Shown one piece after another: positions 54,211 to 57,035 of a stretch of DNA of 64,000 nt. The stretch is from positions 1 to 64,000 of the forward strand of contig CAYWJO010000015.1 in assembly GCA_964458565.1 (NCBI GenBank), in the 5' to 3' direction. The notes under the pieces were generated by a model. The model searched no databases, was not told the origin of the DNA, and was given only the letters and a program-made list of their open reading frames with translations. Both the position numbers and the translations under genes were made by a program. Position 1 is the stretch's first letter. Each line of letters begins with the position of its first letter. The DNA is from an uncultured archaeon (lineage in GTDB: Archaea; Asgardarchaeota; Thorarchaeia; Thorarchaeales; Thorarchaeaceae).

Positions 54211-54645
54211 CTACCACTGAATACCAATTTCTAGAATCTCAAATTCGCTTTTATATAGCCCAGGGATACTTTCAATTGTTTTCCGTATATCTTCCTCTTT
54301 AGCTCTGATACCATCAGCTGCAAAATATACCTCGTAGATGCACCGCTTGTCTTCAAAACAAAATCCAGTTGTAAAAAGAACCTTCAAATCTTGTTGCTTA
54401 AAGAGTTGGGTCATAGTTTTCATTAAAGCAGGGTTCACTTTCTCAACCTCTAGACGTACACGAGCTCCGCCTTCCTTCATCATCGGAATTAATCTGATTT
54501 CTCCAGATCGCTCAAAATAGATTACCATTGCAGCCTTCATTCCCTCAAGTTCTGGATTCTTGAAGAAATCTTCAGGAATTCGTATTGTCTGGTTCTTGTG
54601 CACATCAGCTATCATGCCTTTGGTTAACCCGGCCACGCCTAACAC
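54211..54645 (-). CDS. AbrB-like / ACT-like two-domain regulator
   Basis: ADVHKNQTIRIPE (AbrB-like), then a beta-alpha-beta-beta-alpha-beta pattern ending in IESIPGLY. Confidence 0.55.
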   Translation of the reverse strand: MLGVAGLTKGMIADVHKNQTIRIPEDFFKNPELEGMKAAMVIYFERSGEIRLIPMMKEGGARVRLEVEKVNPALMKTMTQLFKQQDLKVLFTTGFCFEDKRCIYEVYFAADGIRAKEEDIRKTIESIPGLYKSEFEILEIGIQW

Positions 54646-54820: not shown

Positions 54821-54943
54821 ATGGCAATTGAAGGTGGAATCTATGTTTGTGATATCTGTGGTCAGGTTATCGAAGTAAAGAAGTCAGGACCAGGAACTCT
54901 TGTTTGTTGCAATGAACCTATGAGATTTTACAAAGAGGAATGA
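54821..54943 (+). CDS. Desulforedoxin (stand-alone Fe(Cys)4 domain, 40 aa)
   Basis: MAIEGGIYVCDICGQVIEVKKSGPGTLVCCNEPM matches YxCxxCG..V...G.G.LVCC..PM. AGGTGA SD; missed by the ORF track. Confidence 0.9.
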   Translation: MAIEGGIYVCDICGQVIEVKKSGPGTLVCCNEPMRFYKEE

Positions 54944-54962: not shown

Positions 54963-54995
54963 TTGACAATCTTTATATTCTTACAGTAGACGCCC
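54963..54995 (+). promoter_or_regulatory. Promoter of Rpb5 paralogue 1 (duplicated at 55608-55640)
   Basis: TTGACAATCTTTATATTCTTACAGTAGACGCCC versus TTGACAAATCTTATATGTTAGACAAGAGACCC; both contain a TTATAT box. Confidence 0.6.
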
Positions 54996-55024
54996 GACTT
55001 CATTTGGTCTGGAGCGATTTAATA

Positions 55025-55585
55025 ATGGTAGAACTACCTAGCATAGTGATAAAAACAAGAGAGCTGCTCTCATTACGTTCCTATAGAGTTTCAGAGTTGC
55101 TCGAGTATGAAAATCGATATGTTATGTATCCGATAAGAGACAAGGGGGACGAATTGCTCAAGAAGACAGTGTGGATCTTCAAAGAACCGAAAGTGGTTGG
55201 AATAGCTGTTGTAAAGGACATCCTTGGTGATATGGAAGAGAATGAATCCTATGATGCAATGCTTGTTGGAGGAACTAGATTTACACCTGCGGCTAAGAAA
55301 TTTGCCAAACAGGCAAGAGTTGAACTAGTAACTGGACAATACGCATCATTTGATCTATTTGGCCACCAACTTGTACCACAGCACCTTATTACCGATGACT
55401 CTGAAATTAAGCTTATACTCAATCACTACGGTATACAAAAATCACAATTACCTCGTATCTCTCGAGATGATCCAGCTGCCAAGGCTGTTGGTGCACGTAG
55501 AGGACAAGTTATTCGTATTGAGAGAGATAGCCCAACAGCAGGGATGGTTTACTACTACCGAATAGTGACAGATTTAGCTAGATAG
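55025..55585 (+). CDS. rpoH: RNA polymerase subunit Rpo5/RpoH, eukaryote-like two-domain Rpb5, copy 1
   Basis: C-terminal RpoH domain (HQLVPQH, LPRISRDDP, GQVIRIERDSPTAG..YYYRIV) plus an N-terminal jaw-like domain (LRSY.V, EPKVVGI, FTPAAK). Confidence 0.92.
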   Translation: MVELPSIVIKTRELLSLRSYRVSELLEYENRYVMYPIRDKGDELLKKTVWIFKEPKVVGIAVVKDILGDMEENESYDAMLVGGTRFTPAAKKFAKQARVELVTGQYASFDLFGHQLVPQHLITDDSEIKLILNHYGIQKSQLPRISRDDPAAKAVGARRGQVIRIERDSPTAGMVYYYRIVTDLAR

Positions 55586-55607
55586 ATAGAGCAGATTCAG
55601 GCTCTAT
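55586..55607 (+). terminator. Hairpin between the two Rpb5 genes
   Basis: ATAGAGC-AGATTCAG-GCTCTAT. Confidence 0.4.
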
Positions 55608-55665
55608 TTGACAAATCTTATATGTTAGACAAGAGACCCTTGTTTGAACGCTGGGTGTCTTTAAC

Positions 55666-56229
55666 TTGGTAGAAATTCCGGACATAGTGATAAGAACAAG
55701 AAACCTCCTTACTCTTCGTGGGTTTCAAGTAAATGACCTTTTTGAATTTGAGAATAGATATGAGATGTATCCGACCAAAACAACTAAGGAAGGTATGGTT
55801 GTAAAAACAATCTGTAGAATATTTAAAGAAAGTAAAGTTGTAGGGATATCAGTTATTAGAGATATCCATATGAAAATGGAAGAAGAAGAAGCACAAATGG
55901 GCATGATTGTTGGAGGAACTAGATTTACACCTGCGGCTAAAAAATTTGCCAGAAAGATTAGGGTCGAACTTGTTGAAGGGGGATATTCATCATATGATCT
56001 TTTTGGACACCAACTTGTACCAAGGCACATTGTCGCCGCAACAGAAGAGGTGGATCTTGTGCTTAAACATTATGGAATTGAATTGAGAAAACTTCCTCGC
56101 ATTCTACGTGATGACCCTGCTGTGAGAATTCTTGGAGCTAAAGCAGGCCAAGTGATTCGGATTCAGAGAGATAGCCCAACTGCAGGGACCATTTACTATT
56201 ATCGGTTAGTTGTAGACTCAAAAAGATAG
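55666..56229 (+). CDS. rpoH: RNA polymerase subunit Rpo5/RpoH, eukaryote-like two-domain Rpb5, copy 2
   Basis: Same architecture as copy 1 (LRGF.V, KVVGI, FTPAAK, HQLVPRH, LPRILRDDP, RDSPTAG); about 59% identical by manual count. Confidence 0.92.
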   Translation: MVEIPDIVIRTRNLLTLRGFQVNDLFEFENRYEMYPTKTTKEGMVVKTICRIFKESKVVGISVIRDIHMKMEEEEAQMGMIVGGTRFTPAAKKFARKIRVELVEGGYSSYDLFGHQLVPRHIVAATEEVDLVLKHYGIELRKLPRILRDDPAVRILGAKAGQVIRIQRDSPTAGTIYYYRLVVDSKR

Positions 56230-56234
56230 TAATC

Positions 56235-57035
56235 CTATATAGATACAAGACCAAGTAAGACTCCTAGGTAGATCATCAATACTGTAGTCAGAATTGGAAC
56301 TGTTGTATTATCAGTGCCCTTTGGACTAACTAACTCAATTAACATCGCACTAAATCCACCAAAAACTGAGATTATGATCATTTCAAAAATCAAAATTGAT
56401 GAACCTACTAGGAATATTCCATAATGAAATACTCCAAAGAACCACAAAGCAAGAAATGCACCAAGAATGCCAAATATTAGAAGTGCAAGACAGCCTTGGA
56501 TGCTACGTTTTGAGCCAAAGATTGTGTAGGTATGATTCGCACCAAATTTCATACCAATCGGGGCGGACATTCCATCACCAAACATCATGATATGAATACC
56601 AGCAGCAGCAAAACAATAGAGTTGTTCATTCCCAGTTATTGTGAATACTGCTGTTATTAGCGTGATTGAAACTGCATACCAAAAGGGACCTCTCACACTA
56701 CCATGGTCAAGATCTTCAGGTCTGGCCATTGCTTGGAAGAATTTACTAAATCGCTCTTGATTGGCCAAAGCGAGCATTATAACAAAAAGCAAGGCTACAA
56801 TGGTTCCAACCCATGCATGAGTGTAGTAAGGCAGGCTCCAAATTGCACCGCCTGCAAAGAGGTGAACAATACGTCTTGTAAACTCAGATCCTAAATTGAA
56901 TCTGCGTCGAGATAAATCTGCTATGACTAGTATAGTCAGTGCGTATAATACGGCTAATGTAAATACTATGAAATCGTTTAGATCAATGGCAAAATCAGTG
57001 ATATTAAAGACGATATCGATTTGCACCTTATTCAC
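56235..57035 (-). CDS. Polyprenol/dolichol/phytol kinase (SEC59/VTE5/DGK1 family)
   Basis: TRRIVHL, FGDGMSA.IG..FG, KRSIQG, E...PKGTDN..VP. Confidence 0.9.
   Translation of the reverse strand: MNKVQIDIVFNITDFAIDLNDFIVFTLAVLYALTILVIADLSRRRFNLGSEFTRRIVHLFAGGAIWSLPYYTHAWVGTIVALLFVIMLALANQERFSKFFQAMARPEDLDHGSVRGPFWYAVSITLITAVFTITGNEQLYCFAAAGIHIMMFGDGMSAPIGMKFGANHTYTIFGSKRSIQGCLALLIFGILGAFLALWFFGVFHYGIFLVGSSILIFEMIIISVFGGFSAMLIELVSPKGTDNTTVPILTTVLMIYLGVLLGLVSI

Follow-up and report, generated by a model that had tools for sequence, protein, structure and literature searches.

Eukaryotic RNA polymerases I, II and III (Pol I, II and III) contain Rpb5 (also RPABC1 or POLR2E; PF03871 and PF01191; PDB 1dzf, 8uhd_E, 5xog_E and 7vba_E), a subunit of 205–215 amino acids (aa) in which a dead PD-(D/E)XK jaw is followed by a short hinge and an assembly domain. 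The jaw keeps the PD-(D/E)XK fold but is inactive as a nuclease (PMC3424549), and its TPSA motif touches downstream DNA (PMC6690254). The canonical archaeal subunit, Rpo5 or RpoH (NF007129; PDB 8cro_H, 4qiw_H and 7ok0_H), is ~80 aa long and is encoded first in an rpoH-rpoB-rpoA operon, and the Rpb5 jaw domain has been stated to be absent from archaea (PMC3479171, PMC6690254, PMC3424549). In Sulfolobus, the small subunit Rpo13 sits beside Rpo5 in the place of the eukaryotic jaw and touches downstream DNA (PMC3479171). Second, diverged Rpb5 copies beside the canonical subunit have been described in plants (NRPE5 and NRPD5 of Pol V and Pol IV; PDB 8hyj_E and 7eu0_E) and in trypanosomes (RPB5z) (PMC6690254). 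Here, we describe two adjacent genes in a 64,000-nucleotide (nt) stretch of DNA from an uncultured Thorarchaeaceae archaeon (assembly GCA_964458565.1, contig CAYWJO010000015.1, positions 1 to 64,000; the window). The two are tandem paralogues of an Asgard long-form Rpo5 (RpoH), the two-domain counterpart of eukaryotic Rpb5.

The two copies and their jaw domain

Copy A, the upstream gene, occupies positions 55025–55585 of the forward (+) strand and encodes 186 aa from an ATG codon, with homologues beginning MVELP at the aligned position; copy B (55666–56229, +) encodes 187 aa from a TTG codon. The co-oriented copies are 60% identical in protein from end to end (BLASTP, E 6e-86) and ~65% identical in DNA, which bears out the pair of paralogues of about 187 aa and ~59% identity described in the initial annotation, a reading of the sequence alone. 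The RpoH assembly domain claimed for each was also recovered. Pfam Rpb5_C (PF01191, cut-off 23.5 bits) matches residues ~110–182 of copy A (55352–55567, +; E 3.8e-26, 91 bits) and of copy B (55999–56211, +; E 2.5e-25, 88 bits), and both proteins pass the NCBIfam RpoH equivalog NF007129 (93.8 and 90.2 bits for A and B, cut-off 83). Their C-terminal 75 residues clearly match canonical archaeal Rpo5 (Pyrococcus Rpo5, E 1.7e-20; target template-modelling score, TMt, ~0.9). Unlike canonical Rpo5, however, the copies add a 105-residue N-terminal (N) domain, come as two genes and do not stand first in an rpoH-rpoB-rpoA operon. To our knowledge, duplicated core polymerase subunits would be unusual in an archaeon.

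The N domains (copy A aa 1–106, 55025–55342, +; copy B 55666–55986, +) appear to have an inactive PD-(D/E)XK, Mrr-like fold. Their best Pfam match is the Mrr-type restriction endonuclease family Mrr_cat (PF04471), which both pass (24.6 bits in copy A and 26.7 in copy B, cut-off 21) over the distal half of the model, positions 56–109 of 115. The initial annotation had proposed a hidden Markov model search with both Rpb5 families, and the outcome was divided: Rpb5_C matches both copies, but Rpb5_N (PF03871) gave no match at E <= 1 in either protein or at the locus in a genome search, and none of the database relatives listed carried PF03871. Pfam assigns the N domain of the copies to Mrr_cat and leaves it below its own Rpb5_N threshold. 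Because the Rpb5_N model found no match, jaw homology had to rest on profile comparison and fold.

Pairwise comparison with phmmer aligned copy A residues 49–181 with residues 74–209 of human RPABC1, reaching well into the jaw, and placed the FTPAAK of both copies opposite the human MTPSAK. The other motifs singled out beforehand, LRSY/LRGF and EPKVVGI, are present as well, with copy B reading ESKVVGI for the latter. We built one profile from 32 full-length Asgard long forms (A1) and another from the N domain alone (A2, which includes copy B). With A1, eukaryotic RPB5 (E 3e-36, profile positions 34–181 to RPB5 residues 58–209) outscored the short archaeal Rpo5 chains; the copies and RPB5 have the EPK...VG and T-P-(S/A)-A blocks in common. 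With A2, eukaryotic RPB5 was the only significant match in the PDB (E 4e-7), positions 7–92 aligning with 13–111 of a plant chain. The Asgard copies are shorter than eukaryotic Rpb5, and the first ~30 jaw residues align poorly.

Predicted structures agree with the profiles. AlphaFold2 models of copies A and B had mean predicted local distance difference test (pLDDT) values of 86.7 and 90.7, respectively, and for both the best Foldseek matches in the PDB were full-length RPB5 chains, with query template-modelling scores (TMq) of 0.70–0.75 over ~200 columns (up to 0.73 for copy A and 0.70–0.75 for copy B), versus ~0.38 for short archaeal Rpo5, which has the C domain alone. The first non-polymerase match, the PD-(D/E)XK nuclease EndoMS, came at rank 50. 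Judged by profile search and predicted fold, then, the N domain is homologous to the Rpb5 jaw. The earlier claim of a match to the eukaryotic jaw holds, and an N domain unrelated to the jaw fold, which had been named as grounds for dropping the idea, is not what we found. Taken together, these results support the view that both genes encode full-length, two-domain Rpb5-type subunits, which, where their eukaryotic counterpart serves three polymerases, would serve a single archaeal one.

A search of 1.84 billion representative proteins with the N-domain profile found 732 proteins. Among the best 84 of these, 73 carried Mrr_cat, 38 carried Rpb5_C and two carried Rpb5_N (one of them a fish RPB5). 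Because these best matches mix the three families, the Asgard N domain is, by sequence, intermediate between Mrr-type nucleases and the eukaryotic jaw, and this position suggests how the jaw may have arisen. Unlike the Mrr-type nucleases, however, the N domain is joined in one protein to the assembly domain of an RNA polymerase subunit, and in alignments of the Asgard long forms we found no conservation of the catalytic D...(D/E)xK in the Rpo5-linked N domains. This family does have an E-x-K (KEPKV, KESKV), but other Asgard families carry replacements there, and no acidic partner upstream of it is conserved. Because no catalytic D...(D/E)xK is conserved, we infer that the N domain is not a nuclease and represents a dead Mrr-type restriction-nuclease fold.

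What is conserved lies elsewhere. The only invariant residues of the N domain are R18 and T87, with G59, R85, E100 and L101 nearly so. T87, invariant in all 32 Asgard long forms, opens the T-P-A-A loop (TPAA, copy A aa 87–90), and by analogy with Pol II the N domain might provide the DNA with a guard rail. The same role would be that of Sulfolobus Rpo13, which is a small, helical, separate and unrelated subunit limited to some Thermoproteota; we claim no homology between the two.

The Rpb5 jaw is thus not limited to eukaryotes, being found in both copies here and in genomes labelled as Hod-, Heimdall-, Jord- and Thorarchaeota, and this jaw piece of all nuclear polymerases is probably older than eukaryotes. 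The literature searched, whose coverage was incomplete, yielded no account of a full-length Rpb5 in archaea or of such an origin of the jaw. The accessible part of a 2026 study that modelled Thor- and Helarchaeota Rpo5 with Rpo1, Rpo6 and Rpo8 does not mention the N domain (PMC13257274). There is also an annotation gap: public records say plain ‘subunit H’, and some calls cut the gene to its C domain (entries of 82–118 aa), so that surveys of databases may miss the long form where gene calls are truncated. Public calls for the same or a near-identical long-form gene include lengths of 82 and 114 aa at the short end and of 181 and 206 aa at the long end.

Locus, promoters and distribution of the pair

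The genome (3.73 Mb in 93 contigs, 93% complete, 5.2% estimated contamination) yielded no third Rpb5_C match beyond copies A and B. Its rpoB, rpoA' and rpoA'' genes lie on another contig (C45), in agreement with the earlier observation that neither copy is next to rpoB or rpoA, and the search for rpoB and rpoA' found a single gene of each. Upstream of rpoB there is a 574-nt gap and then a divergent gene, and no rpoH, so the suggestion of looking for a third rpoH in the rpoB operon turned up none. Among the sampled Asgard genomes, five short RpoH genes do stand directly upstream of rpoB, and none of the long-form loci compared had rpoB in its flanks (~1.5–4 kb). Since no Rpo5 gene other than copies A and B was found in the genome, at least one of them must be a working subunit. 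The rpoB of this genome is one frame of 1169 aa. In several Asgard genomes (G036, G016, G001, G025 and G029) rpoB was matched in two pieces, some ~1.6 kb apart in one locus or in one long frame, possibly an intein or insertion, and others on different contigs; the N-terminal extension of several relatives’ rpoB matches crosses one to three stop codons and was probably extended past the true start.

Gene order around Rpo5 is conserved in the family: a ribbon-helix-helix gene, a gene for a 144-aa protein on the opposite (–) strand, a 40-aa desulforedoxin-like gene, one or two Rpo5 genes, a 266-aa membrane protein gene (–), and genes for a MoCF/CinA-like protein and an HD-domain protein. Because this order is kept around the pair, the duplication happened in place.

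The duplicated unit took in the promoter along with the gene. A promoter-like element at 54963–54979 (+), ~48 nt before the start codon of copy A, consists of TTGACAA (54963–54969) and TTTATAT (54972–54978), and its counterpart at 55608–55624 (+), ~49 nt before that of copy B, of TTGACAA (55608–55614) and CTTATAT (55617–55623). Across 30 Rpo5 genes of the family, cTTGACAAtnyTTATATg recurs 45–60 nt before the start of single, upstream and, in a variant form, downstream genes; the shared upstream element noted in the initial annotation is therefore present before both copies and conserved well beyond them. By analogy with archaeal promoter architecture, the motif would be a transcription factor B recognition element (BRE)-like sequence beside a TATA box, and on this reading, which fits best, we set aside TTGACAA as a bacterial –35 box. 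A scan for sigma-70 promoters and intrinsic terminators, which does not extend to archaeal promoters, returned nothing at either element or after copy A.

Ribosome-binding-like sites follow the same pattern, with GGAG at 55011–55014 (+), 10 nt ahead of the ATG at 55025, and, as read from the sequence, GGGTG at 55653–55657 (+) before copy B; a GGTG-type site (GGTG or GGGTG in relatives) is found family-wide 8–12 nt ahead of the start codon. The spacers of the tandem pairs measure 59–134 nt, and each holds a TATA-like box and a GGTG site. Each copy is probably transcribed separately. The hairpin noted earlier between the copies does exist, as a 10-bp stem at 55583–55610 (+) that starts at the copy A stop codon and is followed by TTTG, but it is neither statistically unusual (folding z-score of the region only –1.3) nor conserved, no counterpart having been found in the other eight tandem pairs; for these reasons we rejected it as a terminator.

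We surveyed 251 Asgard genomes, including 16 genera of this family. Long forms (open frames of at least 180 aa) occur in most Asgard families and short forms (81–125 aa) in few, and names on long-form records include Jordarchaeales, Hodarchaeota, Heimdallarchaeota and Thorarchaeota. Only this family showed two or more Rpb5_C matches, in five of the 16 sampled genera (g1, that of this genome, g3, g4, g6 and g10); the remaining 11, like all other Asgard families sampled, have a single copy. On an rpoB tree, the five duplicated genera all fall within one 10-genus subclade (Shimodaira–Hasegawa-like approximate likelihood ratio test 93), and six basal genera are single-copy. The pair is thus kept in related genera and confined to one subclade.

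This distribution bears on whether the second copy could be an artefact of assembly or binning, from a collapsed or chimeric contig or a contaminating relative. The fragmentation of the assembly and its estimated contamination leave room for such an error. However, a DNA identity of ~65% between the copies is too low for a mis-joined repeat, both copies lie inside one contig between conserved neighbours, and 23 other genomes, from four other genera, show this tandem layout again at the syntenic locus. Absence of the duplication from relatives, which the initial annotation had listed as a way in which its proposal could fail, is the opposite of what the survey found. We consider an artefact exceedingly improbable and, on the identity and the recurrence, rejected misassembly.

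Among the long-form relatives, one Asgard metagenome RpoH/Rpb5 C-terminal protein of 481 aa (P0145) has three tandem jaw-profile matches before its assembly domain, and members of its cluster with 327 and 411 aa suggest that the number of jaw repeats varies.

A proposed single polymerase with either of two subunits

Both copies appear to be maintained. Their reading frames are intact, and all invariant and nearly invariant residues of the assembly domain are kept. In within-genus orthologue pairs of each copy, the proportion of nonsynonymous differences (pN) was 0.03–0.18 and that of synonymous differences (pS) 0.20–0.85. Synonymous sites are saturated in most pairs, which leaves the comparison of pN with pS and two unsaturated pairs usable; in those two, the ratio of nonsynonymous to synonymous rates (dN/dS) was 0.13–0.27. 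From these comparisons, both copies are under purifying selection.

We also modelled copy B with the Rpo1'' of this genome (contig C45, 11481–12665), the native RpoA subunit to which the initial annotation had suggested fitting each paralogue. Contacts were predicted through copy B aa 108–183 and Rpo1'' residues 257–320, with a docking score of 0.72 versus 0.32 for the best control; the runs shared at least 57% of contacts, and partner pLDDT was at least 78. Of 80 solved complexes, 58 reached that docking mark, as did two of 110 mismatched pairs. Like complexes have been solved, so this pass may reflect likeness to them only and is not proof of binding. Copy B is therefore placed on Rpo1'' as a prediction.

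These data weigh on the idea that one copy is no longer a polymerase subunit, and is either decaying or acts as a free factor, for example by titrating Rpo1'' or by using its jaw to bind DNA or some other partner. The non-ATG start of copy B would suit such a fate, as would its radical W50R change, at a position that does not vary among the 20 other family sequences compared, and in some genera one copy evolves ~2x faster than the other. Against this stand the intact frames with their full set of conserved assembly-domain residues, scores over the RpoH equivalog cut-off and high-confidence models for both copies, and dN/dS well below 1 in both; the predicted seat of copy B on Rpo1'' uses the canonical surface, with the proviso that such pairs can pass by likeness to solved complexes. 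Loss of subunit function in either copy seems improbable to us. Both copies would instead assemble into polymerase and be transcribed separately, so that two polymerase variants probably exist, to judge from sequence conservation and modelling.

How the pair arose, and whether its members have diverged in role, can be approached through their phylogeny. In a tree of 40 long-form sequences, the family came out as an unresolved polytomy. Constraining all downstream or all upstream copies to group together cost 6.5–7.0 log-likelihood units (approximately unbiased (AU) test, p-AU 0.35). Constraining paralogues by genus gave a likelihood above that of the free search (+2.3 to +7.5), and the g6 paralogues were already a clade. 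Identities follow the same trend: same-genome paralogues are 60–68% identical, and between genera upstream–upstream and downstream–downstream comparisons average 63% and upstream–downstream comparisons 61%. One gain and two losses are enough to explain the spread of the pair on the rpoB tree. These data agree best with a single old duplication, after which the copies were partly homogenised and some were lost; repeated, genus-wise duplications are a possible alternative.

A trace of such homogenisation may be preserved in this genome. A near-identical tract of 45 nt lies at 55263–55307 (+) in copy A, where it covers VGGTRFTPAAKKFA, and at 55907–55951 (+) in copy B. Of its positions, 44/45 match, 34 nt of them in one exact run; the longest exact runs were 7–22 nt in between-genera controls and 8–18 nt in other tandem pairs. 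The tract spans the DNA-contact motif, and in its best 15-codon window 14/15 third codon positions are identical. This pattern likely marks a short gene-conversion event in this genome.

The account that we favour, and regard as fairly probable, is that the copies are in-place duplicates and largely interchangeable, one polymerase being equipped with copy A or with copy B, with differences in expression or dosage. An ancestral single rpo5 would have stood at the conserved locus between the desulforedoxin-like gene and the membrane protein gene, and would have been duplicated there along with its BRE/TATA promoter and ribosome site; on the most economical history, this happened once, in an ancestor of one subclade of the family. 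The C-terminal assembly domain would anchor Rpo5 on the largest subunit (Rpo1''), and the N domain, by analogy with Pol II, would line the downstream DNA path through its conserved T-P-A-A loop. The cell would then make one polymerase with either copy at the same position, occasional gene conversion would keep stretches of the copies alike, and the copies would differ mainly in expression or dosage and not in fixed, distinct roles. We favour partly homogenised, interchangeable copies because the alignment contains no diagnostic column that tells upstream copies from downstream ones over the five genera, because genus-wise grouping scores better, and because of the conversion tract and the single copy in 11/16 genera; interchangeability is thus read from sequence comparison.

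Several points weigh against this account. The copies differ at 40% of residues, and pure redundancy is hard to reconcile with the long retention of two of them. Measured against the family consensus, copy A of this genome is altered at eight conserved sites (six in the assembly domain) and copy B at 11 (eight in the jaw, W50R included). Most of these changes are conservative. The concentration of A’s changes in the assembly domain and of B’s in the jaw could reflect specialisation. So could the faster evolution of the upstream copy in three of four genera. As to the history, the AU tests reject neither a single origin of the duplication nor genus-wise origins, and the rpoB tree on which the single gain is mapped is a quick tree of a single marker.

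Some of these points would be expected if, as the initial annotation inferred, A and B gave functionally different polymerases, suited for example to distinct promoter classes, factors or growth states, in the way that NRPE5 and RPB5z might suggest. Long retention of both copies under purifying selection, most within-genus comparisons having saturated synonymous sites, would fit such specialised isoforms, as would an own conserved promoter for each copy, the divergence between the copies, their complementary departures from consensus and their asymmetric rates. Start codons could be read in the same way: in nine pairs, the downstream gene always begins with TTG or GTG and the upstream gene mostly with ATG (eight ATG, one GTG), which suggests different levels of translation. 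There is also eukaryotic precedent, Rpb5 paralogues occurring in specialised polymerases (PMC6690254; the PDB chains of Pol IV and Pol V). However, no column tells the positional copies apart across genera, same-genome paralogues are as close to each other as positional counterparts between genera or closer, the likelihood is higher when they are grouped by genus, and in this genome the likely conversion tract runs over the very motif that would contact DNA. The pair is also missing from most of the sampled genera and from all other Asgard families sampled. Finally, the plant paralogues pair with paralogous large subunits, but here there is one rpoB and one rpoA', without lineage-wide diagnostic differences between the copies. 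The consensus departures and the rate asymmetry are hints, short of evidence for distinct roles, and we regard functionally distinct isoforms as plausible but rather unlikely.

The same evidence bears on a broader proposal, namely that some Thorarchaeota run two polymerase variants that differ only in their Rpb5-type jaw subunit and serve different gene sets or conditions, the jaw itself stemming from a fusion of a dead Mrr-type nuclease with RpoH in Asgard archaea. We offer this as a tentative proposal, with the odds against it; if true, polymerase diversification by subunit paralogy would have a precedent among prokaryotes, and in those most closely related to eukaryotes. The tandem pair offers a simple system in which to ask if duplicating a subunit diversifies one polymerase.

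Genes flanking the pair

Directly upstream of Rpo5 in most family genomes compared, and at 54821–54943 (+) in the window, lies the gene for the 40-aa desulforedoxin-like micro-protein (Desulfoferrod_N, E 6e-14; CxxC...CC), a fixed redox metal-binding neighbour. The 144-aa protein encoded at 54211–54645 (–) matches no Pfam or NCBIfam family, is 64–83% identical among the family genomes compared and holds a constant position beside Rpo5. On the other side, a convergent gene at 56235–57035 (–), 5 nt from the copy B stop codon, encodes the 266-aa multi-pass membrane protein, which has no Pfam or NCBIfam match and shows 42–63% identity across the family.

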